This document shows, piece by piece, positions 3,986 through 38,928 of a stretch of 64,000 nucleotides of DNA. The stretch is from Anaerolineaceae bacterium (GTDB lineage Bacteria; Chloroflexota; Anaerolineae; Anaerolineales; Anaerolineaceae). Location of the stretch: the NCBI GenBank assembly GCA_036746315.1, contig DAIOEK010000007.1, forward strand, positions 19,759 to 83,758. The letters are read 5' to 3'. The stretch's first letter is position 1. Every line of letters begins with the position of its first letter. Position numbers and translations under genes: made by a program. A model generated the notes under the pieces. The model was given only the letters and a program-made list of their open reading frames with translations. It was not told the origin of the DNA and searched no databases.

Positions 3986-4006
3986 GCTGTTCTCCTCAAT
4001 CTGCTA

Positions 4007-4378: not shown

Positions 4379-4385
4379 GGATGTT

Positions 4386-6968
4386 CTATTTATTCCCCTT
4401 GGTATCAGATGTTTTGATTTTTGTTTTCGACTTGCTCTTTTTCATGAGTGCAGCCTTGATGACGTCATCCATACTATCTGCCGGAATGAATTTTATCGTA
4501 TTTCGCACCTCTTCTGGCAGGTCATCCAGATCGATTTCATTACGGCGGGGCAGAATGATTTTCTTCAGCCCGGCGCGATGCGCAGCCAGCACTTTCTCTT
4601 TGATTCCGCCCACCGGTAGAACCTGTCCGCGCAGGGTGATCTCGCCGGTCATGGCAACTTCGGGGTTGACCTGCTGCCCGGTGATCAATGAGATCAGCGC
4701 AGTTGCCATGGTGACACCGGCAGAGGGACCATCCTTGGGCTGGGCGCCGGCCGGCACGTGTAGATGGATGTCGTGTTTGTCGAAATAATCATCCGGGATA
4801 TTGTACTCCGCCGCCTTCGAACGCACATAGGATAAAGCCGCCCGCGCAGATTCCTGCATCACGTTGCCGAGCGAGCCGGTCATCTGAAAACCCTTCGAGC
4901 CAGCCATCTTGGTGGCTTCAATGAAGAGAATATCCCCGCCAACCGGCGTCCACGCCAGCCCGGTGGCGACACCCGGCAGCATGGTGCGCAGAAGGATCTC
5001 TTCCGTGCCGTGATAAGTGGGCTTGCCCAAAAGTTCCTTCACTACCCGCGGGTTGACGGTGATGCTCTTCTTTTTGCCCTCGGCAAGCTGGGTGACAAAT
5101 TTGCGGCAAATACCGCCAATTTCGCGCTCCAGGTTGCGTACGCCAGCTTCGCGGGTGTAGGATTGAATGATCTCGCGAATGCCATCATCGGCAAAAGAGA
5201 TCTCCTTGGTTTTCAAACCGTTCTCGCGGATCTGGCGCGGAATGAGATATTGCCTGGCGATCGCCAGTTTTTCACCCTCGGTGTAACCGGAAAGCTCAAT
5301 GATCTCCATGCGGTCCAGCAAAGGCGCCGGAACGGTTTCGAGCGTGTTGGCGGTGGTGATGAACATCACCTGCGAGAGGTCGTAGGCAACCTCTAGATAG
5401 TTGTCGCGGAATTCGGAGTTCTGCTCCGGGTCGAGCACTTCCAACAGTGCGGAAGCCGGGTCGCCGTGAAAGTCGTGGCTTAGCTTATCCACTTCGTCAA
5501 GCATAAAGATCGGGTTGCGGCTTTCGGCGCGGCGGATGGTTTGCAGGATGCGCCCCGGCATGGCGCCGATGTAGGTCCGGCGGTGACCGCGGATCTCCGC
5601 TTCATCCCTGACGCCGCCCAGCGAAACACGGATGAATTTTCTGCCCATGGCGCGGGCGATGGACTGTCCGAGTGATGTTTTGCCCACACCCGGAGGACCC
5701 ACAAAGCACAGAATGACCCCCTCACGCATTTTGCGGATGTAATCCTTGCTCTGGCTGCGGGCAATGTCGTCGGTGCGTTCCTCGCGCAGCTTGCGTACCG
5801 CCAGAAATTCCAATATCCTTTCCTTGATATCCTGCAGCCCGTAATGGTCTTCGTCGAGTACCTTGCGGGCGTGGGCAATATCGAGGTTATCCTGTGTACC
5901 GGTTTTCCAGGGCAGCGAAACCAGCCAGTCGAGATAGGTGCGAATTACCCCATACTCCGCTGCCGCAGTCGGCAGGCGGGATAGCCGTTCCAGTTCACGC
6001 TCAGCCTGTTTGGCTGCCTCTTCGGGCATTTTGGCAAGCTCGATCTTCTTGCGGAATTCTTCGACGTCGGCGGTGGTTTCATCGGTGTCGCCCAGTTCCT
6101 TCTGGATGGCTTTCATCTGCTCGCGCAGAAAATATTCGCGCTGCATTTTCTCAATCTCTGAGCGGGCTTCGTTCTGGATCTTTTGACCCAGTTCCAATAC
6201 TTCCCCTTCGCGGACGAGGATGCCGACCAGTTTGTGCAGCTTTTCGCTGGCTGAATCGATTTCCAGAATGGATTGGGCTTCCTCTGCATCCATGCGCTGG
6301 AAATTGGCGATGGAATACACCGTTTGCAGCGGGTCTTCCAGCGAGGCGATGGTGGCAACCAGCTCGCGCGGGATCGAAGGGATCATTTCCGCGATGTGCT
6401 CGAACTGGTCACGGGCATTGCGTGCCAGCGCCTCCACCTCCAGCCCGGTTTCGGCTTTTTCAGGGTGCAGTTTGATCTTTGCCTTGAGGAAAGGCTCCTG
6501 CTGGGTGAATTCCACAATTTTGAAACGGGCAATGCCCTGCATCAGCAGGCGGATGGTGCCATCGGGGGCGCGGAAGAGCCGGTTGACCACGGCGATGGTG
6601 CCAACCTGGTAAAGCTCATCCGGGCCGGGGTTCTCAATATCTGCATCGCGGGAGGTGATGAGACCGATCAGCCGGTCACCGGCGATGATGTCATCCACCA
6701 GCCGGATGGAGCGGGGCTGACCGATGGTGAGGGGAACGGTCGTTTCAGGGTAGACGACCACGCCACGGAGGGGCAAAATGGGCAGTTCTTCGGGCAGTTT
6801 CGAAAGGCGCTCGTCATCAGACGTGCCTGTTTTACCTTCTTCATCCAATGCAATCGGGTTGTCGGCTATTTGTCCTGAAAGGATCAGGTATTCTTCCATT
6901 GTTTTTTGATCTTCTTCTATCCAATCAATAAGATCGTTTGCGATTTCATTCCAACGAGATGCGGCCAT
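4386..6968 (-). CDS. lon: ATP-dependent Lon protease
   Basis: 860 aa with a LON N-domain, Walker [10 protein letters not shown], and the catalytic Ser context [15 protein letters not shown]. Confidence 0.97.
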
Positions 6969-6971
6969 GTT

Positions 6972-7385
6972 TCACTCTTTTATCTGAATAATGGTAGGTT
7001 GTATTTTGGGCAGATGAATATTCAAGAATCCGTCACGGTATTCGGCGGTCACCTGGTCGGCATCCACCGGGGAGGGAAGCTCCACGGCGGTTTTGAAATC
7101 TCCAAACATGATTTCCATCTGGTGGAAGGATCGCCGCAGGGGCATATCCGGGCGGCTGCCTGAAATGGTGAGGATATTATTCTCTAGGCTGACACAAAAT
7201 TCTTCTTTGTTCATTCCGGCAATCTCCACCCGGATGATGAATTTCTCATCCGTTTCATACAGATCGGTGGGGGGCTGCCAGGTGTGGGGACGGCGAACGG
7301 AGACGCGCCAGGTAATGACGCCCGATGGTTGGTCGGCTTCATCTCCGGAAGGGTTTGCAGGGTATTGATTATTCTCTTGATCCAT
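6972..7385 (-). CDS. Hsp20/alpha-crystallin small heat-shock protein
   Basis: 137 aa with an alpha-crystallin domain (PPTDLYETDEKFIIRVEIAGMNKEEFCVSLENNILTISGSR...AEYRDGFLNIHLPK). It ends 4 nt upstream of the lon start. Confidence 0.9.
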   Translation of the reverse strand: MDQENNQYPANPSGDEADQPSGVITWRVSVRRPHTWQPPTDLYETDEKFIIRVEIAGMNKEEFCVSLENNILTISGSRPDMPLRRSFHQMEIMFGDFKTAVELPSPVDADQVTAEYRDGFLNIHLPKIQPTIIQIKE

Positions 7386-7578
7386 GAAGGTTATCCTTGG
7401 TTGTATATATGGTTGTCACTTTAATTATATGTCCAGATGTTGGAATAACGTAAGAATAGTAGGAGGTATTTGCAAAATTTGCATGAACCGCTCCTCCAAC
7501 TTCCATGACGAACGGGAAGGTGCGCATGGTAGGGCAGCCTAGTTGCAGGCAGCAGCCGATAAAAGCCCGCAGACGCAG

Positions 7579-8565
7579 TTACGGCTGTGCCAACAAACCT
7601 TTGGCGATTTGCATGAAATCGATCTGATTGGTTCGTTGCAATTTTTCAATCCATTCCGGCTTGATATGATCCGCGCCGCAATATGCACCGCATAATGCAC
7701 CGACAATCGCTCCGTTGGTGTCGGCGTCGTCCCCCAAATTAATGGCGGAAAGTAATCCCGGCTCGAATTCGCCGTTCGCAGCGTAGAATACGCCGAGCGA
7801 CAGCGGAATTGATTCGTAGCTTTTCATGCCTGCCCCGATCAGTTGATACAACCGATGGCTGATTTCATCCACCGGAGCCCAACGATATTCGTCGACCACT
7901 TTCACGGCAAGACCGATACGGGCGGAAACGGAGGGGGCCGGGATATCAAACCCCGCCTTCTCTCCTTCAGTTGCGCCGAGCAGGGCTGCCTCGAGGACCG
8001 CACGCACCGTGCATTCTCCCTGGATGGCGGTGGCAATGGCTGCTGCAACAGCGGCTGCCGAGGCAAGCCCGGGCTTGCTGCCGTGCGATACGGAAGCCGA
8101 TTCGATTGCCGCCCGAATCGCTTTTGCGACATCGGCATGATGGAAAATGCCGACCGGCGCCACCCGCATTGCCGCTCCATTTGTATCCCCGATTTTCCCG
8201 TTTTCACGCGGATCCTGATCATTTACGATAGCTTCCAAAAACCGGCGGGTGGAAGGGCCGATGACGGTGGTGTTCAGCATGTCCGCTTCGATTGCCCATT
8301 TTTTCATTTTTTGTATGAACAGCGTTTGATCGAACCGACCGGCTTGCAGCAGAACATCGGCAATGATCAAACTCTCTTCCGTATCATCTGTTATCGTTCC
8401 CTGTGCCAAATTCCCGTGTTGGATTTGCTCCTGATCGGGGGGCAGGAAATCGGTGATTCTGCCATAAATTCTTTTTATCTGCCCTGGTGACATAAAAGAT
8501 GCCGGCATCCCCATTGCGTCGCCAATTGCTGAACCGATCAGGCATCCCAAAGCTCGTTTAATCAT
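7579..8565 (-). CDS. ADP-ribosylglycohydrolase family protein
   Basis: MIKRALGCLIGSAIGDAMGMP...GDDADTNGAIVGALCGAY are the family-typical N- and C-terminal metal-binding motifs. The start at 8565 is preferred over 8589 because it has a GGGAAG-like RBS. Confidence 0.8.
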   Translation of the reverse strand: MIKRALGCLIGSAIGDAMGMPASFMSPGQIKRIYGRITDFLPPDQEQIQHGNLAQGTITDDTEESLIIADVLLQAGRFDQTLFIQKMKKWAIEADMLNTTVIGPSTRRFLEAIVNDQDPRENGKIGDTNGAAMRVAPVGIFHHADVAKAIRAAIESASVSHGSKPGLASAAAVAAAIATAIQGECTVRAVLEAALLGATEGEKAGFDIPAPSVSARIGLAVKVVDEYRWAPVDEISHRLYQLIGAGMKSYESIPLSLGVFYAANGEFEPGLLSAINLGDDADTNGAIVGALCGAYCGADHIKPEWIEKLQRTNQIDFMQIAKGLLAQP

Positions 8566-8731
8566 GGTTGCGCTTCCCTGGTGATTCATGATGTTGGTTT
8601 CGGGAAATGTTCAAAATGAGGTTCACATTCAAGTGATAAGAAAATTTTACCCTTAAATATGCCGAAGGGTTGGTCTTTATGGATTTTTTAGCAAAATATT
8701 GGCAGACGGAGGAAAACAACAAACTTATAAA

Positions 8732-8779
8732 ATGGCGCCCCAGGAGAGACTCGAACTCTCAACCATCGGATTAGAAGTC
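8732..8779. repeat. Direct repeat (att-like): duplicated 3' portion of tRNA-Arg(TCT), identical to 16802-16849
   Basis: The 48 nt atggcgccccaggagagactcgaactctcaaccatcggattagaagtc occur identically at both positions. The flanking bases differ. Confidence 0.9.
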
Positions 8780-8829
8780 GCACGTCACCGCCACGCAGCC
8801 GATTTACGCACGAATTGGAGGTGATTGAC

Positions 8830-9762
8830 ATGATAGAAACTCAGCAAGTACAGCGGACGGCCATCGGGCAGGCGTCATTCCTTGGGGTTGCGGTTGAAGC
8901 GTTCATGTTTGACCGTAGGGCTGCTGGGGTGCGTGGTTCCACGCTTAAATTTTACCAGCATAAGCTGCAGACGTTCATTGATTTTCTGGACCAAAGGGAA
9001 CTGCGATACCTGGAACAGTTACAGCCGACAGATATCCGTGAATTTCTGGTGAGCCTGGAAGGGACACACACACCCGGCGGGATTCACGCATTTTACCGCT
9101 GCATCCGGGCATTGTTGCGCTGGTGTGAAGATGAGGAAATCCTACCAGCCGGAACATGGCAGAACCCGATCAAGCGTGTAAAAGCACCCAGGGTCGATAT
9201 AGAGCCATTACAGCCGATTCCCTTAGAGGATGTACGCAAGGTACTCGATACCTGCAACACGAAGCTATTTACCGACCTGAGAGACGCGGCAATCTTCTTA
9301 TGCCTGTTAGATTCAGCGGTAAGGGCTTCTGAGCTGCTTGCGCTGAATACCGACGACGTGGATCTACTTTCAGGGTCCGTACTCATTCGCAAAAGCAAAA
9401 GCAGAAAACCCAGGACAACTTACATAGGTAAAAACGCCAGAAAGGCGCTGAGAGCGTATTTGCGCGCCAGAACGGACACAGACGCGGCATTATTCGTCAA
9501 TCGGACCGGTGAACGCCTGGAATATGATAGCTTGCGCCAGGTGCTTGCCAGACGCTGCAAGCGGGCAGGGATCAAGGTATGGCTGCCTCATTCATGGCGC
9601 CGGGCTGCTGCCTTATCCTTGCTACGCGCCGGGGTGGATGTTTACACTTTGCAGCATATCATGGGTCACAGCGATTTACAGGTACTGCAAAGATACCTGA
9701 AGGTTGACAACAACGATGCCGCGACCGCGCATGCCCGCTGCAGTCCCGGGGATAGGTTGTAA
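8830..9762 (+). CDS. Tyrosine recombinase / phage integrase
   Basis: GGAGGTG RBS 6 nt upstream of the ATG at 8830. Catalytic pattern: R (DSAVRASEL), HSWRR, GHSD, LQRYL (Tyr). It lies next to the att repeat. Confidence 0.9.
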   Translation: MIETQQVQRTAIGQASFLGVAVEAFMFDRRAAGVRGSTLKFYQHKLQTFIDFLDQRELRYLEQLQPTDIREFLVSLEGTHTPGGIHAFYRCIRALLRWCEDEEILPAGTWQNPIKRVKAPRVDIEPLQPIPLEDVRKVLDTCNTKLFTDLRDAAIFLCLLDSAVRASELLALNTDDVDLLSGSVLIRKSKSRKPRTTYIGKNARKALRAYLRARTDTDAALFVNRTGERLEYDSLRQVLARRCKRAGIKVWLPHSWRRAAALSLLRAGVDVYTLQHIMGHSDLQVLQRYLKVDNNDAATAHARCSPGDRL

Positions 9763-9802
9763 AATTCAATGGCTGAAATTAGATTTTTTAAGATTCGAGA
9801 TA

Positions 9803-9831
9803 TTGACAAGCGATTAACAATTCCGTATAAT
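9803..9831 (+). promoter_or_regulatory. Consensus sigma-70-type promoter (TTGACA-17 nt-TATAAT)
   Basis: TTGACA at 9803-9808, a 17-nt spacer, and TATAAT at 9826-9831, in the int-RHH intergenic region. Confidence 0.6.
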
Positions 9832-9855
9832 AAGATAGAACTAACATTCTATGGT

Positions 9856-9895
9856 CAGAGACGCACGTTTTATTTTTGCGTCTCTGATTTTAATT
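9856..9895 (+). terminator. Terminator-like hairpin (10-bp stem) with a T-rich tail in the leader of the RHH gene
   Basis: cagagacgca (9856-9865) pairs with tgcgtctctg (9877-9886) and is followed by attttaattt. Confidence 0.5.
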
Positions 9896-9913
9896 TAACC
9901 ACCAGGAGAGAAG

Positions 9914-10087
9914 ATGATGAATAAGAACAAAAAAACAAAGCTTATCATGTTGCGAGCGACGCCAGATGATCGTAGCACCTTGGAGAGCCTGGCGGCTGCA
10001 GAAGGGAGAAGCCTATCAAACATGATTCGCGAGCTTATCCGGCGCGCTGCAGTAATGCGCGGCATCTGCCCGGCGGGTACCGCTTGA
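9914..10087 (+). CDS. Ribbon-helix-helix (CopG/Arc-like) small DNA-binding protein
   Basis: Manual translation gives MMNKNKKTKLIMLRATPDDRSTLESLAAAEGRSLSNMIRELIRRAAVMRGICPAGTA (57 aa, below the ORF-track cutoff). It has a GGAGAG RBS and a beta-strand then helix-helix pattern typical of RHH. Confidence 0.6.
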   Translation: MMNKNKKTKLIMLRATPDDRSTLESLAAAEGRSLSNMIRELIRRAAVMRGICPAGTA

Positions 10088-10141
10088 GCTGGGTATGGGG
10101 GTTATGGTTGGCGTTTCGAGAACGCCGGAAAGAAGGGAGCG

Positions 10142-10939
10142 ATGAAACGTTCAGCGATTTTATTCTTAGGATTGTGCGTAGTAATCGGACTGATAATAGC
10201 GGCACGTCCGCAGATAAGGATGCAAAAAATGATCGATTTCACAGCTAACGGGCAACAAATTGATTTCAGCCTGGCAACAAAAAACATTCCGCAATATACC
10301 CTGGCTTTCAGGTTCCGGGCAGATTCGTTCGGGCATGTCACCGACCCGACCCTGGGTAAGTGGGGCGTGCCGCTTATGCTTGGCGACGTATCGACCGTGA
10401 CGTTTATAGCAAATAACGCAACCACAGTGAAAAATATTCTGTTCTCCCAGACATTCTCAACAACGTCAGGCGCATGGAGAACAAACAGCGCACCGCCTAT
10501 CGGGTCCTATGAGCAAGTGGTTATCACTTATGACGCAACCAGCACCGGCAACGATCCGGTTATTTACATAAACGGGGCAGCCGTTGCGACTACAGAAATT
10601 CAAACGCCGTCTGGGAGCGCTGATACCAGCTTGAGTGGTATAACCATTGGTTCGGATGGAACAAAATCATTTGACGGCGTCCTGCTTGACGTCCGCGTCT
10701 ACAACCGCATCCTGTCAGCGCAAGAAGTATCTGAATTATGGCAGATGGCTTGTGTAACCAGCAACGATTGGGGGCTTGTGTTCCATGCGAACCTGGACGG
10801 TGCAGCGGGAATACCTGATTTTCAGACGCCTTTGGCAGCTGAAAACATCCTTGTGGATCGAATTGGTGGCGCAACGGGCGTACCTACTGGCGGTCCCGTC
10901 GGGGCGTCGGATGTAATAATGACCTGGGGCGGCTGGTAA
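10142..10939 (+). CDS. Membrane-anchored LamG (concanavalin A-like lectin, Laminin_G_3) domain protein
   Basis: N-terminal hydrophobic segment AILFLGLCVVIGLIIA. The C-terminal signature FDGVLLDVRVYNRILSAQEVSELW is typical of Laminin_G_3 domains. Confidence 0.7.
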   Translation: MKRSAILFLGLCVVIGLIIAARPQIRMQKMIDFTANGQQIDFSLATKNIPQYTLAFRFRADSFGHVTDPTLGKWGVPLMLGDVSTVTFIANNATTVKNILFSQTFSTTSGAWRTNSAPPIGSYEQVVITYDATSTGNDPVIYINGAAVATTEIQTPSGSADTSLSGITIGSDGTKSFDGVLLDVRVYNRILSAQEVSELWQMACVTSNDWGLVFHANLDGAAGIPDFQTPLAAENILVDRIGGATGVPTGGPVGASDVIMTWGGW

Positions 10940-11030
10940 GAGCAATACTGATTTGGATTTAATAAAAATGGAGGTGTCAAGATGTTTAACTTAATGTTAT
11001 CGACTCGCGCCGGGGTGGGCGTCGAGCATC

Positions 11031-11639
11031 ATGGCAGACGGGGTGAATATCACCCGCCGTCGCAGAAAGCGATCGATTATGGATGCTGGAACGATTTTAA
11101 ACGCACTATCCCAGCGGCAAACTGGGACAGGCACGAACACGGCGGGAAACTTTCGACAAACTTATTATAACGAAAATTTCCAAAATTACAATCCTGAAAT
11201 ACTTCCGCACGATAACGCCGCTGAGCAGGCAGTCATAGGTGCGGTCCTCATCCTGGGGGCGATCCCACAGGGTCTAAGCCTACGCCCGGATTACTTTTAC
11301 CGGGAGCAACACCGCATAGTTTGGCATTGCTTAGAAATGCTGAGCGCGCGCGGTGAGACTATTGACATTCTCAGCGTACAAAGAGAGCTGGCGAGGATGA
11401 AGCGCACCATAGCGCCTTCGTTCTTGACTAGCTGCCTGTTATACAGCAATCCCCCCGCAATAGATCCATTTACCTGGGTTACTCCCCAGGAATACGCGAA
11501 AGAGTGTGCTGATCGCGTTCTGGCAGCTTTCCGGCAACGGCGGCATGCTATTCAGATCGACGCGATTCTGCAAGCGGTGTGGAAGGGTCGGTACACCGAA
11601 GCAATCCGGATGCTGCAGGACATTGTTGGGGGTGCATAA
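11031..11639 (+). CDS. DnaB-helicase N-terminal-domain protein (start uncertain)
   Basis: LPHDNAAEQAVIGAVLILGAIPQG...FYREQHRIVWHCLEMLSARGETIDILSVQRELAR matches the DnaB N-terminal domain pattern (P.. .EAE..vlG..l...F....h..if....l...g.piD). There is no ATPase domain in this ORF. Confidence 0.65.
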   Translation: MADGVNITRRRRKRSIMDAGTILNALSQRQTGTGTNTAGNFRQTYYNENFQNYNPEILPHDNAAEQAVIGAVLILGAIPQGLSLRPDYFYREQHRIVWHCLEMLSARGETIDILSVQRELARMKRTIAPSFLTSCLLYSNPPAIDPFTWVTPQEYAKECADRVLAAFRQRRHAIQIDAILQAVWKGRYTEAIRMLQDIVGGA

Positions 11640-12685
11640 TGGCAGATACATGGAAACTATACACCCTGGAAGATGCTTTCAAACCACGCCCGCCCGCTGA
11701 GTACGCGGTAGCAAACCTAATCCGGCTGCCCTCACTAGGTATGTTTTATGGTCCCCCAGGCTGCTTAAAATCCATGCTTCTGGCAGATATGGCAGTCTGC
11801 ATTTCCGGGGGTATTGATTGGCTGCAACCAGCTGCATGGCAGCCGGGATCAAAACCGCGCACGGTGCTGCCATGCCCGGTCCTATGGCTTGACCTGGATA
11901 ATGGCAAAGACACCACAGAAGACCGTTTTAAGGCACTTGCAACCGGTCACAAGGTAGATCCAGGCGCCGCCCTGTTCTATTACACCATGCCATCACCCTG
12001 GCCACGTCTGATTGATGAAGCACAAGCAAACGAGCTGAAAGACCGCATATTCCTAACCCAGGCAAGAGTAGTGATCATCGACAACCTGGCAAGAGTATCT
12101 GCGGGCGTGGACGAAAACACGCGCCAGATGGACGACGTTATGAATAACTTGCGGCAAATATCAGAAGCAACCAGAACCGCCATAATCTTGATACACCATA
12201 GCAGCAAAGACCGGGGAACCGGGGGAAGAGCAGGGGACAGACTGCGCGGACATTCAAGCATTGAAGCTGCCCTGGATCTGGCTATCAGCGTAGAACGGGA
12301 AGAGTACAGCAGCAAAATCAACCTGATCACAACTAAGAGCCGTCATGGCGAAATACCACCATTCGCGGCTGAATGGACCTACAAAAAAGAAGCAGATGAT
12401 ACTCTGATCGAGGGTGCATTCTACGGTCTGGCAGCGGATGACGATAAATCAGATCACGCACTTGACCGCGTTATTTTATCCAGCGTAGATGGTACATGGA
12501 CCAATAAAACCAATTTGCGGAAATTAGTCAAAGAAGAACTGCCCGACATAGGCAATCACCGCATCGAGAGCCGGATATCTTTCCTGGCAGCTGCAGGAAA
12601 ACTGGCAGAGAAACCAGGCAATATAACCAATGAGAAGCTATACCGTCATCCGTCTTCCGGCGTCTTCCAATCGTCTTCCGGATGA
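11639..12685 (+). CDS. RecA-fold replicative ATPase (AAA_25/RepA-like), putative element replicase
   Basis: The ATG overlaps the upstream stop (TAATG). Walker A-like GPPGCLKS, Walker B VVIIDNLARV, and IILIHHSSKD are present. Confidence 0.6.
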   Translation: MADTWKLYTLEDAFKPRPPAEYAVANLIRLPSLGMFYGPPGCLKSMLLADMAVCISGGIDWLQPAAWQPGSKPRTVLPCPVLWLDLDNGKDTTEDRFKALATGHKVDPGAALFYYTMPSPWPRLIDEAQANELKDRIFLTQARVVIIDNLARVSAGVDENTRQMDDVMNNLRQISEATRTAIILIHHSSKDRGTGGRAGDRLRGHSSIEAALDLAISVEREEYSSKINLITTKSRHGEIPPFAAEWTYKKEADDTLIEGAFYGLAADDDKSDHALDRVILSSVDGTWTNKTNLRKLVKEELPDIGNHRIESRISFLAAAGKLAEKPGNITNEKLYRHPSSGVFQSSSG

Positions 12686-12731
12686 CAACCGAAACCGTCA
12701 TCCGTCTTCCCCCCCTTTTAAGGGGAAGACG
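12643..12731. repeat. Iteron cluster (CGTCTTCC x4 direct + 1 inverted) with an embedded hairpin; candidate replication origin
   Basis: cgtcttcc occurs at 12651, 12661, 12672 and 12703, and the inverted ggaagacg at 12724. ccgtcatc occurs at 12643 and 12695. The stem ccgtcttcccc/ggggaagacgg spans 12702-12732. Confidence 0.5.
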
Positions 12732-12769
12732 GTGGACGACGAAATCAGAGAACTTAGGGAGTGTGGATC

Positions 12770-12979
12770 ATGGGAAAAATGAGCTATTTACCTATCAAAG
12801 AAAAGGGCTTGTATCCTCTAGAAATAGTACAGGGGATTCACCGTCCTCTGTATATTTCAAGCGCTGCAGCGGCGTTCAGGCGGGTTATTCGTGCTTGGTG
12901 GGAGCGTACAACGCCGGGGATCTGCCACTATAACGAGCTGCTAATCTCAGAGTCCTCTGTACTTTGGGGGCAGGAATGA
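12770..12979 (+). CDS. Hypothetical small protein (element)
   Basis: ORF with a GGGAG RBS upstream. No recognisable motif. Confidence 0.3.
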   Translation: MGKMSYLPIKEKGLYPLEIVQGIHRPLYISSAAAAFRRVIRAWWERTTPGICHYNELLISESSVLWGQE

Positions 12980-13386
12980 CAGCGAAAGTAACCAAAGCAT
13001 GCGGGGCAGAAGCAGCGGTCCGGGCGTTATCCAGGGGTGAACCGTTTACCGGGTTGGCTGCCCGTGAACTGTGCGAGGTGATCCAGACGTTCGAGGATGA
13101 AGGGCGTCTGGAGATCATGAAGCATAACGCATATCGGGGGCAGGCGACGGCAAATCTATTCTGGCAGGCAATCCAGAAGGCAGCGGACGAAGGCGACTTG
13201 CAGCGGCTAGATGAATATGTCAAGCGGTTTGGCTGGCTGCTGGGTGTGGTGACGCGGTTATGGCAGGCTGAAGCGATAGAAGAGAAGGCGGCTAAGGGCA
13301 ACAGTACTGAGGTCGATGCAATCCTGGCAGAATACAGGGACGCTGATACAGCAGAAGGGACGGGCGAAGATGCACCAAATAATTAA
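12976..13386 (+). CDS. Hypothetical protein; its position immediately upstream of the TerL-like gene would fit a small terminase subunit
   Basis: 136 aa, helical and charged. The 3' end overlaps the next gene's start. The assignment rests on synteny only. Confidence 0.3.
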   Translation: MTAKVTKACGAEAAVRALSRGEPFTGLAARELCEVIQTFEDEGRLEIMKHNAYRGQATANLFWQAIQKAADEGDLQRLDEYVKRFGWLLGVVTRLWQAEAIEEKAAKGNSTEVDAILAEYRDADTAEGTGEDAPNN

Positions 13387-15037
13387 CTTTGCCAAAGGTG
13401 AGCTGGGAATAAAGCTGCACCCAGGGCAGGCACGGGAATTGTCTGCCTACTATGAGAGCGGGCTGCCTGATTGGTTGAACCTATCCGGGCGGCGGTCGGG
13501 TAAGTCTTTGCTTGCGGACGTGATCGCGTGTTATGAAGCGTTGGTCCCGGATTTCAGCGCGTATATCAGACCGGAAGAGCCGCGCCATATCATCATTGTT
13601 GCGAACCGGTTAGATAATGCCAGGCTGCATATCGACAATATCAGCAAGATGTTATCCCGGCGGTTCAAGTCTAAGATCACGAATGTTACCCAGGACAGGA
13701 TCGAGCTATCCAACGGGGCGGTAATCCTGTGCTTGCCGGCAAGCGCACGGGCAGGGCGCGGGTACACCGCAAGCTGCGTGATATTTGATGAGCTGGCACA
13801 TTTCGTCGATAGTGACGGAAATCAGAGCGCGGACGCGGTTTACAATGCGTTTTCGCCGACTGTGGCAACGTTCGGGGACGCGGCGCGGATTGTGATAACC
13901 ACGACGCCATTTACACGAACCGGGATTGTATTCTCGCTATTTGACCGGATAAACAGCGGTGAACTGGCAGATCAGATCTATTTGACGCATTGTACCACCC
14001 AGGAAATGAATCCGAAGGTCGGGGAAGGTACCATAAAGCGGGCGTTGAAACGGGATGAGGAATCAGCGCGGACAGAATACTTTGCAGAATTTCGCGACCC
14101 GTTGGAAGCGTTCCTTAATCCGCTTGCGATTGACCGGGCGGTCGATGAACACCTGGCAGAGCTTCACCATGCAGAGCCGGGCAAGCAGTACATTATGGCG
14201 ATTGACCCGGCGATCATGCGGGATAACTTTGCTTTTGCGGTGATGCACACAGAGAAGGGCGTGCATATTGTGGACATGGTCCGCGCACTTAAGGCGCCGG
14301 TGGACCCGAACGAAGCGGAAGATTTACTCTTCCTGCTGAATAAGAATTTTCACCCGTTGAGAATCCTTTGCGATAATCCCAGCCTGGTACAGCGATTACG
14401 CAGCAAGCTGCCGAACCTGGAATACAAACCATTCACCCGACCGATGAAACTTGAAATCTATGGCAGCCTGAAAGAAGCGATCAACCTCGAAAACTTCCAG
14501 ATGTATAAGCAGCAGGACGCCATAGATGAACTGAAGGCGCTGCAGATCCGCAACGGGGTTGATATCGCGGCACCAAAAAGCGGCCGGATTACACACGACG
14601 ACCTGTGCGACGTCCTGGCATTGTGTGTCAATGGCTTGGTAAAACGGGCTGGGGTTGGTGAAGTGGAATATGCACCAAATTTTATTTTCGGTACTGTGGC
14701 GGGGCAAGAAACTTATGAAGATTGGTTATGGCGTAAGCAGAACACCGCCGAACACCCGCCGGGTGTCACCTGGCAGAACTGTAAGAACCGTCACCGGGGT
14801 TGCGACGCATGCGAACGGGAAACCGCGCACATGGTGGACCCTGAGACGGGGATCTGGATCGGGGACAATCAGCCGGTTGACGTCCCGGATGGCGCGCATG
14901 TTTCTGTCATTGATGGGGACCTGCTAACCAGCCTAATTACAAGAAACATAGAAAGGGAATACAACAAAGAAATTAGAGATCAAAAAATCCTAGACTTATT
15001 TTACAAAGGTGCAAACTTGCACCGGAAAGGCTACTAA
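13370..15037 (+). CDS. Phage terminase large subunit-like protein
   Basis: Walker A-like LSGRRSGKS, Walker B CVIFDELAHF, ITTTP coupling-like motif, and C-terminal acidic residues (AIDPA..., THDDLCDV) consistent with the RNaseH-like nuclease. Confidence 0.55.
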   Translation: MHQIINFAKGELGIKLHPGQARELSAYYESGLPDWLNLSGRRSGKSLLADVIACYEALVPDFSAYIRPEEPRHIIIVANRLDNARLHIDNISKMLSRRFKSKITNVTQDRIELSNGAVILCLPASARAGRGYTASCVIFDELAHFVDSDGNQSADAVYNAFSPTVATFGDAARIVITTTPFTRTGIVFSLFDRINSGELADQIYLTHCTTQEMNPKVGEGTIKRALKRDEESARTEYFAEFRDPLEAFLNPLAIDRAVDEHLAELHHAEPGKQYIMAIDPAIMRDNFAFAVMHTEKGVHIVDMVRALKAPVDPNEAEDLLFLLNKNFHPLRILCDNPSLVQRLRSKLPNLEYKPFTRPMKLEIYGSLKEAINLENFQMYKQQDAIDELKALQIRNGVDIAAPKSGRITHDDLCDVLALCVNGLVKRAGVGEVEYAPNFIFGTVAGQETYEDWLWRKQNTAEHPPGVTWQNCKNRHRGCDACERETAHMVDPETGIWIGDNQPVDVPDGAHVSVIDGDLLTSLITRNIEREYNKEIRDQKILDLFYKGANLHRKGY

Positions 15038-15039
15038 TT

Positions 15040-15762
15040 ATGACCGCATGGATAGATCAACTAATTAGCATTAGAGCGTTAAGAGAAGAACTGGCAAAGT
15101 ATGGCGGGATGATGGACCCTTATGCCCGTTCGGTAATTACCCGTGAAATAGCATCGAAAGTGGACGCGGTAAGACCAGCGGCAGTTAATGGCGCATTAGC
15201 AGACTGGCGCGGTACGATCCAGAAATACCAGGATGCCCGGGCAAAATTCGAGCAGGCACGGCAAAAAGAAGCGGACAGCTACGACGCCGGAAAACTGGCA
15301 GGGGAAATCAACCTGCTACAGACCATGATCGGGCTGAATAGCAAGCAGGCATCCCCATTCAAGAAGCAGCCGGATGGACTGCAGAAAATCTACCAGGACG
15401 CGGCGAACAGCGCGGATAAACACCGCAGACGTGCCGCGGCTGAGCTATTTGCAGCGATGGACGGCGGCAAAGACCTAGCGATGGTCGAATTGGTCCGCAA
15501 GGCAAAAAACGACCTGGCAACCATGCTTGACACGCCGGAAGTGAAGCAGGCAGCGCAAGGGGTCATTGATGGATTGAATGAACTGGAAAGCTGCAGGGAA
15601 TACGTCACGAATGTTGCCGATATTCTGGGCGAAAGCAGGGATCAGATATTTGTACACGGTGCTTTACGTGAAGAATTAAACAGGGTCCGTGTTATGCCCG
15701 ATGGAAACGTGGAAATCAAAGAGGTTAATAATGGACGATCAATGGCAGAAACTCAAAACTAA
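15040..15762 (+). CDS. Hypothetical helical protein (element)
   Basis: 240-aa ORF starting 3 nt after the TerL-like stop. No motif recognised. Confidence 0.4.
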   Translation: MTAWIDQLISIRALREELAKYGGMMDPYARSVITREIASKVDAVRPAAVNGALADWRGTIQKYQDARAKFEQARQKEADSYDAGKLAGEINLLQTMIGLNSKQASPFKKQPDGLQKIYQDAANSADKHRRRAAAELFAAMDGGKDLAMVELVRKAKNDLATMLDTPEVKQAAQGVIDGLNELESCREYVTNVADILGESRDQIFVHGALREELNRVRVMPDGNVEIKEVNNGRSMAETQN

Positions 15763-15988
15763 GAAGCCGAAATTCCAGACACCTGCCTGGGTGAAAACAA
15801 TCAGCGGGTTGGCTTCCATTTATTCACGGCAAAACCATCGGGACGAGATCAAAATACCCGATACCAAACAAAGCGCGCCTTATGAGGATAATAATACCCG
15901 CTGGTATAACTTCCTGCGCAAGCATGGTTATTCTGAGGAAGAAATCGACGCGGTGAAAAGTCGACGGGAAAAACCATTATTCGGGTAA
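15731..15988 (+). CDS. Hypothetical small protein (element)
   Basis: ORF MDDQWQKLKTKKPKF... overlapping the previous gene's end. Confidence 0.3.
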   Translation: MDDQWQKLKTKKPKFQTPAWVKTISGLASIYSRQNHRDEIKIPDTKQSAPYEDNNTRWYNFLRKHGYSEEEIDAVKSRREKPLFG

Positions 15989-16186
15989 AAAAATAATGGC
16001 AGGTATTGACAACCGGCGTATAATAGATATAGAACGATCCTGGCAAGTGCGAGAACACCTGCCAGGACCTAACCAAAACGCCGGGATAAGCGGCGAATGG
16101 CTAACCTGATTATATCATAGCAGCCACCTTAAACCGCTTGTCCATTCAGACAGGCGGTTTGTGTTTAACCAAAAGGAGGCTATGCA

Positions 16187-16465
16187 ATGAGTAACAAGGT
16201 TCTAGATCGGGAACTGGTAGAGCCGATGGTATCGGTAGAATTTATCGAGAATATCATCTGCTGCTGGGGCGGGGATTGTCTCACCTCTGCCCTGGAAGAT
16301 CGACCGCAAGAACAGCGGTTATTAAATTCCATTGTGCTGGGGTACATGGTACAGATCAACGCGCTGCAGAATGGCGGCAAGGTTGAGAAGTGCCTGGCAG
16401 AATGGATCAAGGACGAAATGCCCGAAGCGATCAACACCATGAGCGCGCTGGGCTTTCAATGGTGA
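16187..16465 (+). CDS. Hypothetical protein (element)
   Basis: AAGGAGG RBS 7 nt upstream of the ATG. 92 aa. Confidence 0.45.
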   Translation: MSNKVLDRELVEPMVSVEFIENIICCWGGDCLTSALEDRPQEQRLLNSIVLGYMVQINALQNGGKVEKCLAEWIKDEMPEAINTMSALGFQW

Positions 16466-16481
16466 GGGGAAGGAGCAGAAA

Positions 16482-16682
16482 ATGGCTGAGCATAATCCTT
16501 GTGAATCGGTTGCCAGGAAGATGATCCGGGTATATGACGAGATCACCAATATCACCGAAAAGATAAACATCCTCACGGAAGAGATCGAAGAACTGGAAGA
16601 AGAGAAAAGCGTCCATGAGCTGCAATTCGAGCAATTAGGGCATTTACTGATATCTTTTGACGAAGAAGAAGGGAAAATGTAA
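16482..16682 (+). CDS. Hypothetical coiled-coil small protein (element)
   Basis: 66 aa with an acidic heptad-like stretch, ITEKINILTEEIEELEEEK. Confidence 0.35.
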   Translation: MAEHNPCESVARKMIRVYDEITNITEKINILTEEIEELEEEKSVHELQFEQLGHLLISFDEEEGKM

Positions 16683-16802
16683 TGACAAAATCAAAAAATG
16701 ATGTACAATGGATTATAGGTAAAGCATTTTAATTGCAAAAGCGTACACGGCATATATGGCGGTGACGACATGGCAGGGGCAGCATATACGGGGGTAGAAT
16801 CA

Positions 16803-16878
16803 TGGCGCCCCAGGAGAGACTCGAACTCTCAACCATCGGATTAGAAGTCCGGTGCTCTATCCATTGAGCTACTGGGGC
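16803..16878 (-). tRNA. tRNA-Arg (anticodon TCT), CCA encoded
   Basis: The reverse complement GCCCCAGTAGCTCAATGGATAGAGCACCGGACTTCTAATCCGATGGTTGAGAGTTCGAGTCTCTCCTGGGGCGCCA folds as a cloverleaf. Acceptor GCCCCAG/CTGGGGC, anticodon stem CCGGA/TCCGA with loop CTTCTAA, T-arm GAGAG-TTCGAGT-CTCTC. Confidence 0.9.
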
Positions 16879-16894
16879 AATGGCAACAATCTTA

Positions 16895-17329
16895 TCACAA
16901 ATTCGTGGGGCGAATGCCCATAAAGATCCGTGAACCGGAGAGCAGCCGTAGAATGGTATCCCCCGGCTTGCCGATCATGGCGCCCAACTCTTCGGCGTTG
17001 AGCGGGGTATTTCCGTTGGAGAGGAAGATGCGGAAGACGTTATCCACCACGCTATGGTTCTCCTCCACAAAGCCTTCCAGTCGGGAGCAATGCAGCATGA
17101 GCTTTTGCTGAATACCATCCACCTGGTGTACTTCCGCTGTGATGGGGTCGATGTGGTCGATCAATTCCCCTTCCGCGGCCGAGGCAAAAAGCTGGCGGTG
17201 TTCGGGGCAAAGGTAATCCAGCAGGAAAACCCGCCAGTTGTTGTCATGTTCTTTCCACCAGTCGAAATCGATGTGGAAGGGGGTATTGAGGGTTGGTTTT
17301 ACAAGAGAAAATTGAGGCTTGTTTTCCAT
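16895..17329 (-). CDS. Hypothetical protein
   Basis: 144-aa ORF whose start codon directly abuts the upstream gene's stop codon. No motif recognised. Confidence 0.5.
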   Translation of the reverse strand: MENKPQFSLVKPTLNTPFHIDFDWWKEHDNNWRVFLLDYLCPEHRQLFASAAEGELIDHIDPITAEVHQVDGIQQKLMLHCSRLEGFVEENHSVVDNVFRIFLSNGNTPLNAEELGAMIGKPGDTILRLLSGSRIFMGIRPTNL

Positions 17330-18913
17330 CTATGTCTCCTGCATGCCCGTATCAGCCAGTCGATAGTAAAGGTCACCGACGTGTTTGAATGCCGGTGAAT
17401 TCACCAGTACAGAGAAGACAATTTCAGGCGTGCAGCGACGATAGATATTGGCTGCAGCATAAAGTTCCTGGGCGTGGACATGTCCCTGTGGGTTTAGTTT
17501 GGTTAGTTCCTGAGCGCATTGAATGATGATGTTTTCCCAATGGGGGCGTTTTGCTTTTTGGGCTTCCCAGTATTTATCCAGGTTGGCAACGTCGGGTACC
17601 ACGGTTGCCATACGTTCGTCATAGGTGGTGTTTACCTGTTGTTTCAGTAAAGCAAATACAATCCCTCCGTCTGCGCCGACCAAGATGGTGCGCAGCCATT
17701 CCTTGCTCTTTTTTTTCTCGACGTTGATCACCACCTCACCCCGGGCATTGGCTTTATGGATGGTAATGATGCTGCCGGGGAGGACGCCATTTTGTGCGTA
17801 CCATTCTTCCAGACCGACAACGTACCGATTGGGGCGCACCACCCATCCGGGAATCTGGGTCTGGGTTTCCGCATCGATAAATGAGAACTGGATGCGGGGG
17901 GATTCCAGTGCGGTGGGGAAGAGCTTTCGGGTGCGGCTGGATAGTGGCAGTGAACCAGCCCGCCAGTGTGGGTATGTCAGCACAACTTCCACCTGTTCCT
18001 TTTTTTCGTATTCAAAACAGGCGGTGCAGTATTCGTCATCCAGCGCTTTCTCGAGATCAGAAAGCTGCGGGGTAAAGTTCTCCCGGTTCACTTCCTGTGG
18101 CTGGAATTGCAAGTTAAGCGGCGTCTGGCGGACGTTTTCAGGTTCCAGGCGTTCCAGGTACCAGAGCACATCCCCCGAAGCGCCCACTTCGTCAAAGCGC
18201 GGGTCCTCCTGCAGAGCGAGGTTGAGCGAAAACTCGGTGAGTTTTTCGTTGACGCCCGGCGGAAGGTCCAACTGTTCCATGAGCTGATTGGTGGAAAGAG
18301 GCACACCGGCAGCCATATCCAACACTGCTTCGGCGAGATTCAGCTGACCGATGTTGATATCCACGAACAGGGCACGCGGGAACCATGCACCGGTGATGAG
18401 GGCGAGGTTCGGGTCGGAAGCCAGTAATTCTTCCAGTGCAATTTCCAGTTTTTCACCGTAGGATTCCAGTATCTGATCCAGTTGCGAGTCCTGCGGTTCT
18501 TCCGTGACTGCCGGGGTGTTCAGTTCGTGGTCTTCCAGATCCAACGCAAAACTGCGGATATCGTTTTTGTCGAATTCAACTTCCATAACTTTAAAGGACG
18601 CGACTTCAGGATTCTTGCCATCCCGTACTGATTTCACCTTGCCCTGTGACCAGCCAAGCGCGGGGAATTGAACCTGCTCACCCGGTTCGTAATGGTCTTT
18701 GGGTAAATATACCCGTCCATTTTTCAATTGTTTCTGTTGAAAGGATTTCTTTTCCTGCTCAAGCCTGTTTTGAATCACGGCTTTGAGGAGTTCCTGCGTT
18801 GTCTGGGGGGTTTCTAGTTCGAATAGGTGATTGTTGATAAAATCCAGGTCATTCTGTGAAAACTGATACTCTTCCCATTGTTCTGCCTGGAGTAATGCTG
18901 GGGCACCTGTCAT
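17330..18913 (-). CDS. Hypothetical protein (527 aa)
   Basis: Long ORF with normal composition. All overlapping antisense ORFs are shorter and compositionally skewed. No motif recognised. Confidence 0.55.
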   Translation of the reverse strand: MTGAPALLQAEQWEEYQFSQNDLDFINNHLFELETPQTTQELLKAVIQNRLEQEKKSFQQKQLKNGRVYLPKDHYEPGEQVQFPALGWSQGKVKSVRDGKNPEVASFKVMEVEFDKNDIRSFALDLEDHELNTPAVTEEPQDSQLDQILESYGEKLEIALEELLASDPNLALITGAWFPRALFVDINIGQLNLAEAVLDMAAGVPLSTNQLMEQLDLPPGVNEKLTEFSLNLALQEDPRFDEVGASGDVLWYLERLEPENVRQTPLNLQFQPQEVNRENFTPQLSDLEKALDDEYCTACFEYEKKEQVEVVLTYPHWRAGSLPLSSRTRKLFPTALESPRIQFSFIDAETQTQIPGWVVRPNRYVVGLEEWYAQNGVLPGSIITIHKANARGEVVINVEKKKSKEWLRTILVGADGGIVFALLKQQVNTTYDERMATVVPDVANLDKYWEAQKAKRPHWENIIIQCAQELTKLNPQGHVHAQELYAAANIYRRCTPEIVFSVLVNSPAFKHVGDLYYRLADTGMQET

Positions 18914-19095
18914 ACCTTGCCTCTTCTTCTGATTTAAAAATAGCCCTGTAATTATACCTTAGGGTTAATCGCAGCACAAGAAAAAGCGAAGAACGAAGAA
19001 AGTCATAAGAATCCCGGTATGACAGGTGACGGAAGTCCGCCGACACGGCTGCCCTGGAAGATATATAATATATTCAAATACCCACGGAGAGGACA

Positions 19096-19611
19096 ATGTA
19101 CCCAAAAGACGCAAAGCAACCCAATTATCGCGGCATCACCGTCGTTGCTGAAGCCAGCTCAATTGAGAAGTGGCGCAAGCAGGTGATTGCCGGACAACCG
19201 GAGACCGGCAGGTCTTACGCGTTGATCAGTGATGAGGGCTCGTACATGCCGGGCGGGGAAGGCACCGCCCCCACGCCGCTCACCTACTTCGTTTCAGGGA
19301 TGGCACTCTGACTGATCTCTCACGTTTCGCAGGTTGCGAAAAAAAAGAAGTTATCCATCCAAAACGAACATGTGATAGTGACGGCTCATTTTCATGAGCA
19401 TGGTTCCGTGCTGAAAGGCGATGCAGAAGGTTTTTGCGATGGCTTCGACATAGAGATCAAACTCGATACCGAAGAGGATGACGACATCATCGCCACGCTA
19501 ATCCGGGTGGCGCGCAAGATGTGCTTTACCGAAAAAGTGCTGACCGGTTCGGTGCCCGTGCATGTAACGCAGACCATCAACCAACAGCCGTTCGTCATCG
19601 ACGAGGCATAA
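19096..19611 (+). CDS. OsmC/Ohr-family peroxiredoxin-like protein with an in-frame TGA at 19309-19311 (candidate selenocysteine; alternatively a pseudogene)
   Basis: ORFs 19096-19311 and 19372-19611 are in the same frame. The joined read is ...GGEGTAPTPLTYFVSGMAL[TGA]LISHVSQVA...RVARKMCFTEKVL. The TGA sits where OsmC/Ohr proteins carry the first conserved Cys, and the second conserved Cys is retained. Confidence 0.55.
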
Positions 19612-19633
19612 ACATAAGACAACAGCCGACTAA

Positions 19634-19662
19634 AAAACCACCGCTTTTTGAGCGGTGGTTTT
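19634..19662. terminator. Bidirectional intrinsic terminator hairpin between convergent genes
   Basis: aaaaccaccgc-tttttga-gcggtggtttt, with A-run and T-run flanks. Confidence 0.7.
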
Positions 19663-19682
19663 GATATTCCTGCGGGTTCGGA

Positions 19683-20408
19683 TTATACCAGAACCTCTTC
19701 GGGAACGCGCATCACTTCGTTCGCCTTGACAACGGAATCGGGGACGTTGAAGTCCAGTTCCGTACCGGTCATCTGGCGGACGTAGTTCTTGACGACCTTG
19801 TCCCAGTATTTCTTGGTGACGTAGTAAACGCGGGCGCCACCCAGTTCGTGCTGGTATTCAGGCCACGGGTAAGAAGGCTGAGCCATACCGAGACCCCAGC
19901 GCATCCAACCGTTGTAGCTTTCGTAGGTTGCCCACCATTCCTTGTTGCCCAGCATCTCGAAGCCGTAGTAGGCTTTGGCGTAGTACATGACTGCGCCAAT
20001 GCGTCCACCGCGGACCAGCGCCATGGTGTGGAGGCTGATGTTGATGTCTTCGCTGACCAGGCGGCCATTGGCGAAGCCAGCCCACAACCCATCGATCAAA
20101 CCGACGAGGGTGTAAGGGTCCTTGAGGCGTTTGCGGTACCAACCCAGAATTTCAGCGTACACACGGGCACCCACGATATCGTAGAAGTCGTGGTCGGCTT
20201 CCATGACGCGCTTCATGTAATCCATCATCATGGGGGCTTCTTCCATTTTGGCTTCGCGGATATACAGGGTGCGACCGTCTTTCAATTTCACCATGGCGCC
20301 CGGCCAGGGTTTGAGGTCCATGGCAGGAGCCTGGAGCAGGGGTTCGATCTCGCGAACGTCGATCGTCAGTTGCTCTTCAGATACTTTCTCGGGGGGTTCA
20401 ATTCTCAC
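19683..20408 (-). CDS. Conserved hypothetical protein (possibly acyltransferase-fold), last gene of the decarboxylase cluster
   Basis: 241-aa ORF, 48 nt downstream of the cyclase gene on the same strand. No confident motif. Confidence 0.45.
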   Translation of the reverse strand: MRIEPPEKVSEEQLTIDVREIEPLLQAPAMDLKPWPGAMVKLKDGRTLYIREAKMEEAPMMMDYMKRVMEADHDFYDIVGARVYAEILGWYRKRLKDPYTLVGLIDGLWAGFANGRLVSEDINISLHTMALVRGGRIGAVMYYAKAYYGFEMLGNKEWWATYESYNGWMRWGLGMAQPSYPWPEYQHELGGARVYYVTKKYWDKVVKNYVRQMTGTELDFNVPDSVVKANEVMRVPEEVLV

Positions 20409-20456
20409 AGCAAGTCTCCTTTAAATAAAGTTAGATAAGAATAATTTTTCGCACGA

Positions 20457-21329: not shown

Positions 21330-21432
21330 GGTTATTCTCCTTTTGTATGTATAAATACTTACTGGATGTTACCTGAACTTTAATTTATAAAATCGAAGCT
21401 AATAATTTCATCAGCTTCGATTAATTATAAGA

Positions 21433-38927: not shown

Positions 38928-38928
38928 G

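Follow-up and report, generated by a model that had tools for sequence, protein, structure and literature searches.

The element studied here lies at positions 8732-16849 of a 64,000-nucleotide stretch (contig DAIOEK010000007.1, GenBank assembly GCA_036746315.1, positions 19,759 to 83,758) from an Anaerolineaceae bacterium, hereafter called the window. Repeat analysis revealed one 48-nt direct repeat of 100% identity at 8732-8779 and 16802-16849 (spacing 8070), which was by far the longest repeat in the region 7500-18000. ARAGORN predicted a tRNA-Arg(TCT) at 16803-16878 on the minus strand, also detected with Rfam (71.7 bits), and the repeat covers this tRNA from the anticodon stem to the encoded CCA, plus one base. 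All genes between the repeats are on the plus strand, and the features are as follows.

8732-8779: attL, 48-bp copy of the 3′ part of tRNA-Arg
8815-9762 (+): tyrosine integrase (probable start 8830, 310 aa)
9803-9831 (+): sigma-70 consensus promoter, TTGACA-17-TATAAT
9854-9888 (+): hairpin with a 12-bp stem in the leader of the RHH gene
9914-10087 (+): 57-aa ribbon-helix-helix (RHH, Arc/CopG-like) regulator
10142-10939 (+): LamG-domain protein with an N-terminal hydrophobic segment, variable accessory cassette
11031-11639 (+): DnaB N-terminal-domain (DnaB_N) protein
11639-12685 (+): AAA_25 RecA-fold ATPase (replicative helicase-like)
12644-12738: iteron-like repeats, putative origin of replication
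12682-12933 (+): small ORF of 83 aa, unknown function
12976-13386 (+): o140, conserved 136-aa protein, predicted four-helix, overlapping the TerL start; candidate small-terminase analogue
13370-15037 (+): large terminase subunit (TerL), ATPase plus nuclease
15040-15762 (+): o240, conserved 240-aa protein, predicted all-alpha, directly after TerL; candidate scaffold or capsid-size factor
15731-15988 (+): 85-aa ORF, unknown function
16187-16465 (+): 92-aa ORF, unknown function, variable
16482-16682 (+): 66-aa coiled-coil ORF, last gene before att
16802-16849: attR, 48-bp repeat inside the intact tRNA
16803-16878 (-): tRNA-Arg(TCT), integration target

Profile searches supported all domain assignments of the first-pass annotation, i.e. 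the integrase (PF00589, 5e-32; phrog_1, 2e-41), the RHH protein (phrog_3431 Arc-like, 2e-10; PF01402, 9e-5), LamG (PF13385, 4e-13), DnaB_N (PF00772, 9e-13), AAA_25 (PF13481, 1e-29; phrog_906 and phrog_19) and TerL (PF03237, 4e-7; PF03354; phrog_2, 1.8e-25). Only small corrections were made: TerL most likely starts at 13370 (MHQIINF, as in its homologues), the integrase at 8830, the 310-aa product of which is on record, and the AAA_25 gene at 11639. The promoter matched the consensus at 12 of 12 positions, and the hairpin had a fold energy of -19.6 kcal/mol (z = -3.2). Four direct and one inverted copies of the iteron-like repeat CGTCTTCC were located at 12650-12735, from which the origin function is inferred. 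The ORFs at 12976-13386, 15040-15762, 15731-15988, 16187-16465 and 16482-16682 had no significant hit in Pfam, PHROGs or PADLOC, and no family hit was found for the small ORF at 12682-12933.

Integration site and circular form

To verify that the repeats are the mobile boundaries, metagenome contigs of the same species were examined. Two of them (L059 and L060) carry the empty site, in which 80/80 nt of the left flank and 80/80 nt of the right flank are separated by a single att copy. In addition, a circular contig of 7,962 bp (L066), with a 30-nt terminal overlap (k-1), joins the right end of the element to its left end through att, and it is 99.9% identical to window 12770-16849. In this contig the exact product of the 66-aa ORF is followed by attP and the integrase. 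It was also noticed that its attP carries two substitutions that are compensatory in the T-stem of the tRNA. These results show that the element integrates through its tyrosine integrase into the 3′ half of tRNA-Arg(TCT), that it is absent from some strains, and that it also exists as a circle joined at attP. The possibility raised in the first-pass annotation that the 48-bp repeats might not be the mobile boundaries was therefore not borne out.

Comparison with the near-identical elements L001 and L066 indicated where the element varies. The region of the promoter is replaced in both, and the LamG protein is only 34% identical in L001, while neighboring genes are 91-99% identical. The small ORF at 12682-12933, called as 69 aa in L001, is conserved only in the loci L001 and L002. 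The 85-aa ORF is called in L001 and L066, whereas the 92-aa ORF had no BLAST match in L001 but is called as a 92-aa gene in L066.

A family of TerL-carrying elements in Anaerolineae

About 100 relatives of this TerL (41-59% identity) were found in elements of 7.1-8.5 kb, circular or integrated, and those with a named host are from Pelolinea, Longilinea, Anaerolineaceae and Chloroflexota genomes, in agreement with the first-pass annotation, which considered the host Chloroflexota-like. Further circular contigs were 7,077, 7,415, 7,976 and 8,540 bp, and an independent integrated member of 8,517 bp, bounded by 54-bp repeats in tRNA-Leu, carries an RHH protein, an HTH_17 protein, a DnaG-type primase, AAA_25 and an integrase. 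Over 58 loci, TerL was present in 58, o140 in 45, a replicase in 40 and o240 in 39. RHH homologues occurred in 8 loci, and LamG was absent from most members. The layout noted previously (integrase, regulator, replicase with origin, and packaging gene) recurs across the family, but its hallmark is the triad o140-TerL-o240, since integrases (tyrosine, serine or none) and replicase types (Prim-Pol/VapE, Prim-Pol/D5_N and DnaG primase plus AAA_25) are swapped between members or absent.

The TerL is genuine and looks intact. Its best match among the phage records searched was the annotated terL of Synechococcus phage S-CBS4 (29% identity over the ~400 aligned residues, E 2e-48). Walker A (GRRSGKS), Walker B (D158-E159) and the nuclease residues (D297, D353 and H427-D428-D429) are invariant in 32 sequences; the phrog_2 alignment reaches residue 448, and there was a weak PDB profile match to TerL nuclease domains (5m1f). 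An extra C-terminal His/Cys cluster was present in the long subfamily.

o140 was represented by 148 clusters among 1.84 billion representatives. AlphaFold predicted with confidence a four-helix protein (pLDDT 88.5), but no Pfam, PHROGs, PDB or fold match was obtained, and o140 showed no sequence or fold similarity to any TerS. Only its position is TerS-like, since an outgroup TerL (31% identity) is preceded, in the same overlapping position, by a recognized TerS (phrog_2538, 1e-10). o240 was predicted to be all-helical (pLDDT 78), again with no fold or sequence match and no similarity to any scaffold. No capsid, portal, tail or lysis gene was found in the element by Pfam, PHROGs or fold search, no virion gene was found in the variable genes of the other members, and the predicted o240 and o140 structures are not HK97, portal or jelly-roll folds. 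The conserved unknown ORFs are thus not capsid, portal or tail remnants, the other possibility raised in the first-pass annotation.

Possible life cycle and alternative readings

Based on these observations, we consider it most likely, although with only moderate confidence, that the element belongs to an undescribed family of 7-8.5 kb phage-satellite-like elements of Anaerolineae, which bring their own terminase and borrow procapsids and tails from a helper. In this inferred life cycle, 1) the RHH protein, expressed from the consensus promoter, keeps the element quiescent, 2) the element excises on infection or induction of a helper tailed phage, 3) it replicates from the iteron region using its DnaB_N and AAA_25 proteins, 4) its own TerL, probably guided by o140 acting as a small-subunit analogue, cuts the DNA and pumps it into procapsids supplied by the helper, which also supplies portal, tail and lysis functions, and 5) o240 most plausibly acts on the helper's capsid assembly as a scaffold-like or size-redirecting factor, or alternatively couples TerL to the foreign portal. 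These roles of o140 and o240 are inferred only and are not supported by homology. The tight size range of the family, kept despite swaps of integrase and replicase, fits a packaging-capacity constraint, and the replicase types appear to be those usual in PICI and P4-like satellites. However, without virome or read data no helper phage was identified and there is no evidence of encapsidation, so that the satellite nature remains unproven; no phage hallmark gene lies elsewhere in the window, although this is a weak test, and close family members were absent from the IMG/VR scan. Docking of a foreign TerL on the portal of a helper would also be a demanding requirement.

It is possible, but unlikely, that the element is an integrative or episomal plasmid-like element in which the TerL-type ATPase-nuclease has been recruited for a job other than capsid packaging, such as resolving replication concatemers or processing DNA for another transfer route, with no helper phage involved. 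Several circular members (L024, L035 and L040) lack any integrase and carry only a replicase, the triad and small ORFs, AAA_25 and Prim-Pol replicases are of plasmid type, and the absence of detected virion genes and the lack of detection in IMG/VR are in line with this. On the other hand, TerL proteins with both ATPase and nuclease motifs intact appear to be known only as capsid-packaging enzymes, and both domains are conserved here. Moreover, the closest relatives are phage terL genes and a distant mini-element of 8.1 kb (L011) that pairs TerL with an HK97 capsid gene, and no conjugation or mobilization gene was found.

Less probable still is an autonomous miniature virus with unrecognizable structural proteins, for which o240, the ~100-aa proteins or LamG would be candidates. 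Circular genomes in a narrow 7-8.5 kb range were recovered from many metagenomes, roughly a fifth of the element (o240 and the three small ORFs up to 16682) has no annotation, and o240 is conserved and sits where the capsid gene sits in L011. However, TerL motors generally work on portal-containing HK97-fold capsids, neither a portal nor an HK97 fold was found, o240 is predicted to be all-helical, LamG and the small ORFs are not conserved across the family, no lysis genes were found, and about 2 kb of unassigned coding cannot hold portal, capsid and tail. A related and equally doubtful reading is that of a self-sufficient minimal virus or transfer vehicle, in which a Duplodnaviria-type terminase motor is coupled to a non-HK97 shell built from o240 and the small unknown proteins, or in which TerL drives a capsid-independent DNA-export route; either way, the universal link between TerL, portal and HK97 capsid would be broken. 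Finally, a decayed prophage, suggested by the integrase next to a tRNA att site and the phage-type TerL, is rejected, because the same compact gene set and size recur in about 100 TerL lineages, complete circular genomes exist, the element excises precisely and circularizes, the TerL catalytic residues are invariant, and no pseudogene-like capsid or tail fragments were found in the window.

Comparison with known satellites and terminases

Among Caudoviricetes terminases (e.g. those of Synechococcus phage S-CBS4 and Thermus phage Riverbug, and T4 gp17), homologous ATPase and nuclease domains with catalytic motifs are found, and in S-CBS4 a small gene likewise overlaps the TerL start, but the phage genes sit next to portal and capsid genes in genomes of 34-69 kb, which is not the case here.

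Capsid-forming PICIs (cfPICI) have a similar integrative layout of integrase, regulator and primase/replicase, and among the known satellite families terL is listed only as a cfPICI core gene, setting cfPICI apart from PICI (PMC10085698). However, cfPICIs also encode the major capsid protein, portal, protease, head-tail adaptor and connector, and TerS, and take only tails from the helper, whereas none of these genes was found here; they are also probably larger and mainly known from Proteobacteria and Firmicutes. L011 is nearer to cfPICI logic than the window element is. PICIs and SaPIs share an integrase at an att site, a small repressor-type regulator, a replication module with an origin, a packaging-specificity module and accessory cargo at a variable spot, and some redirect capsid size with small helical proteins. 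They redirect the helper's TerL with their own TerS or Rpp and do not carry TerL, they are typically larger (probably about 10-15 kb), and o140 and o240 show no homology to TerS, CpmA/B or Ccm.

P4-like satellites, of proteobacterial hosts, are likewise integrative with a primase-helicase replicase, but P4 uses the helper's terminase through shared cos sites and has no TerL. P4 Sid, probably an all-helical external scaffold of ~240 aa that shrinks the helper capsid, resembles o240 in size and composition; however, no Sid, Psu, Delta or Epsilon homologue was detected in the Pfam and PHROGs scans, although P4 Sid itself was not compared directly with o240. PICMIs of Vibrionaceae are comparably minimal, being very small satellites with reduced gene content and no capsid-remodelling genes, which package their own DNA (PMC10803314), but they belong to a different phylum and probably carry no TerL, whereas here 2.9 kb of 8 kb is spent on the o140-TerL-o240 module, which includes two new protein families genetically tied to a terminase.

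Known satellites take over helper packaging by supplying a small terminase or redirector, by sharing cos sites, or by building the whole capsid plus terminase, and TerL without capsid genes does not appear to be known from any of them. A family that carries only the terminase motor and two unknown partners would be a fourth way, and it would be the first satellite-like lineage in Chloroflexota, a phylum abundant in digesters, sludge and sediments for which almost no phage biology is known.

Gene content of the element

One outstanding repeat was found in the region, with two 48-nt copies at 100% identity spaced 8070 nt apart. ARAGORN and Rfam both placed a tRNA-Arg(TCT) over the right copy, which is therefore the tRNA from the anticodon stem through the encoded CCA. 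All genes between the repeats are on the + strand, and searches of Pfam and PHROGs confirmed each of the domains called in the first-pass annotation.

Features of the element (window coordinates)
8732-8779, left copy of the 48-nt direct repeat
8815-9762, + strand, tyrosine integrase (PF00589, 5e-32)
9803-9831, promoter matching the consensus at 12 of 12 positions, with a hairpin behind it (-19.6 kcal/mol, z = -3.2)
9914-10087, + strand, Arc/CopG-like RHH protein (phrog_3431, 2e-10)
10142-10939, + strand, LamG protein (PF13385, 4e-13)
11031-11639, + strand, DnaB_N protein (PF00772, 9e-13)
11639-12685, + strand, AAA_25 ATPase (1e-29)
12650-12735, motif CGTCTTCC, occurring four times directly and once inverted
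13370-15037, + strand, TerL (PF03237, 4e-7; phrog_2, 1.8e-25)
16802-16849, right copy of the 48-nt direct repeat
16803-16878, - strand, tRNA-Arg(TCT)

The remaining ORFs had no significant hit in Pfam, PHROGs or PADLOC, and a PADLOC search of 10 element proteins revealed no defence cargo. Elsewhere in the window, a glycine riboswitch (Rfam RF00504, 51.8 bits) was located at 36773-36865 and a tRNA-Asp(GTC) at 38928-39002, both on the minus strand.

Empty site and circular form

The exact product of the right-flank gene (144 aa) was looked up, and contigs from several sequencing runs were returned, whereas the same look-up for the left-flank gene found nothing. In two of these contigs, L059 (SRR9860463) and L060 (SRR9674393), the right-flank gene is followed by the tRNA and then directly by the ADP-ribosylglycohydrolase and HSP20 genes, which lie left of the element in the window. 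At the nucleotide level, the junction consists of 80/80 nt of the left flank, one 48-bp att copy, and 80/80 nt of the right flank, and is thus the empty site. Another contig, L063, showed the occupied right junction.

A look-up of the last element gene (66 aa) returned contig L066 (SRR27686863, 7,992 bp), in which the gene order is DnaB_N, AAA_25, o140 (a conserved gene overlapping the TerL start), TerL, o240 (a conserved gene directly after TerL), three small ORFs, and then the integrase, RHH and LamG genes. It has a 30-nt terminal overlap, which is k-1 for that assembler, and is therefore a closed circle of 7,962 bp. Its two alignments to the window (12770-16849 at 99.9% and 8732-9799 at 97.8%) overlap exactly on the 48-bp att, indicating that this is the attP form. 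It was also noticed that the att of L066 (5765-5812) differs from that of the window by two substitutions, GAGAG..CTCTC to GAGCG..CGCTC, which are compensatory in the tRNA T-stem; the element-borne tRNA segment therefore seems to be kept functional. In contrast, the ends of contig L001, which carries a closely related element, are de Bruijn breaks at att and are not evidence of a circle.

Comparison of these elements (window 9763-10939; L001 1014-2187; L066 6796-7963) revealed that the promoter, RHH and LamG block is a swapped cassette. Between elements that are otherwise 91-99% identical, LamG is only 34% identical, RHH is 82% identical, and the promoter region does not align. It is possible that this block is an immunity or accessory hot spot.

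Related elements and their core proteins

About 100 homologues of the TerL were found at 41-59% identity; almost all are unnamed, and many lie on contigs of 7-9 kb. Exact-product look-ups for the window TerL and o240 found nothing, and a genome scan with the single TerL sequence also found nothing, whereas an alignment-based scan gave 4 loci. Named hosts are Pelolinea, Longilinea, Anaerolineaceae and Chloroflexota, and the sample names point to digesters, fermenters, sludge and sediments. Terminal k-mer overlaps marked four further contigs as circular genomes.

Circular lengths of further members
L024, 7,077 bp
L040, 7,415 bp
L035, 7,976 bp
L004, 8,540 bp (the overlap lies inside a gene)

In addition, L008, from an Anaerolineaceae genome, is an independent integrated member with 54-bp perfect repeats 8,517 bp apart, the second being inside tRNA-Leu(TAG). 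It carries an RHH protein, an HTH_17 protein, a DnaG-type primase, AAA_25, o140, TerL, o240, a pentapeptide-repeat protein and a tyrosine integrase. The pentapeptide-repeat gene (L008 12562-13476, minus strand) is on the opposite strand and looks like an accessory gene at the spot where the window element has small unknown ORFs. A Longilinea member uses a serine recombinase and a Prim-Pol/D5_N replicase, whereas L024, L035 and L040 have no integrase at all. The contigs L033, L043 and L028 (Ga0255341_1004059, Ga0255347_1003527) and L032 are longer than one unit and repeat with a 7.8 kb period, the copies being 76-100% identical; they could be tandem arrays, concatemers or assembly walk-arounds of strain variants. 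Clustering of the ORFs of 58 loci gave four core families, namely TerL (58 loci), o140 (45), replicase (40) and o240 (39), while everything else is variable.

The TerL is a genuine large terminase. Its best match among the phage records searched is the annotated terL of Synechococcus siphophage S-CBS4 (29% identity over the ~400 aligned residues, E 2e-48), followed by that of Thermus phage Riverbug. Walker A (GRRSGKS), Walker B (D158-E159) and the nuclease acidic residues (D297, D353, H427-D428-D429) are invariant across 32 sequences. A conserved His/Cys cluster (H480, C489, C496, C499; TerL residues about 480-499, window 14750-14870) lies after the nuclease domain in the long TerL subfamily but is lacking in the ~500-aa subfamily, and may be a zinc-binding tail relevant to portal docking.

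The o140 protein forms 148 clusters in a library of 1.84 billion proteins and is confidently predicted (pLDDT 88.5) to fold into four helices. Searches of Pfam and PHROGs with 26 members and a PDB profile search gave nothing, the best Foldseek match of the model had an E value of 0.64, and hhalign against S-CBS4 gp011, Riverbug TerS and the TerS of L072 (an outgroup whose TerL is 31% identical) gave probabilities below 1%. The only support for a small-terminase role is position, in that o140 overlaps the TerL start and the same position in L072 holds a recognised TerS (phrog_2538, 1e-10). The contexts of the distant TerL relatives L071 and L072 were otherwise not informative; in L071, a 500-kb Nanoarchaeota contig, a TerL-like protein (613 aa, 28% identity) sits between a 1,368-aa LamG protein and a protein of more than 3,500 aa (3952-21842).

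The o240 protein is predicted to be all-helical (pLDDT 78), although the alignment used was shallow since the homologue searches returned only 1 and 3 proteins. The predicted fold is not an HK97, portal or jelly-roll fold, and no match was found by a PDB profile search, by Foldseek against PDB and BFVD, or by hhalign against the capsid protein of L011. A scaffold-like or portal-coupling role is inferred from composition and position only. L011 (IMG/VR 3300033153_012167) is a distant relative, a circle of 8,117 bp whose TerL is 27% identical; it carries an HK97 major capsid gene (PF05065, 8e-36) shortly after TerL, separated from it by a 117-aa ORF, and a ParB-like gene, but no recognisable portal. 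Mini-elements that pair a TerL with part of a head module therefore exist beyond this family.

Possible life cycle and comparison with known satellites

The element integrates site-specifically in tRNA-Arg, is precisely absent in some strains, has a circular form, and carries a conserved and apparently active terminase. By inference, the RHH protein would act in repression, a helper would trigger excision, replication would start from the iteron region, and the roughly 8 kb DNA would be packaged by o140 and TerL into helper procapsids, with o240 acting on assembly. The family keeps to 7.1-8.5 kb while exchanging integrases and replicases, which fits a capacity constraint. The satellite reading, which we favour with moderate confidence, rests on one argument, namely that TerL motors, as far as is established, act only on portal-bearing procapsids, and no capsid or portal gene was found here by Pfam, PHROGs or fold searches. 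A helper phage was sought in the window by tblastn with portal, capsid and TerL queries, but only the element's own TerL was found; this test is weak. Alternatively, it is possible, though unlikely, that the element is plasmid-like with an exapted TerL, and still less likely that it is an autonomous virus with unrecognised structural proteins. A decayed prophage is very improbable, being contradicted by the family's compact, complete and circular genomes.

We regard the element as representing a terminase-carrying, capsid-less satellite-like family in a new phylum; no study linking Anaerolineae with phage satellites was found in the literature searched. Among the satellite families in the survey PMC10085698, terL is listed only as a cfPICI core gene that distinguishes cfPICI from PICI. 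However, cfPICIs also carry capsid, portal, adaptor and connector genes, which were searched for here and not found, so the element is not a cfPICI. It is not a PICI or a P4-like satellite either, since those carry no TerL and their marker genes were not found here by Pfam, PHROGs or fold searches. PICMIs share the minimalism (PMC10803314), but probably carry no TerL.
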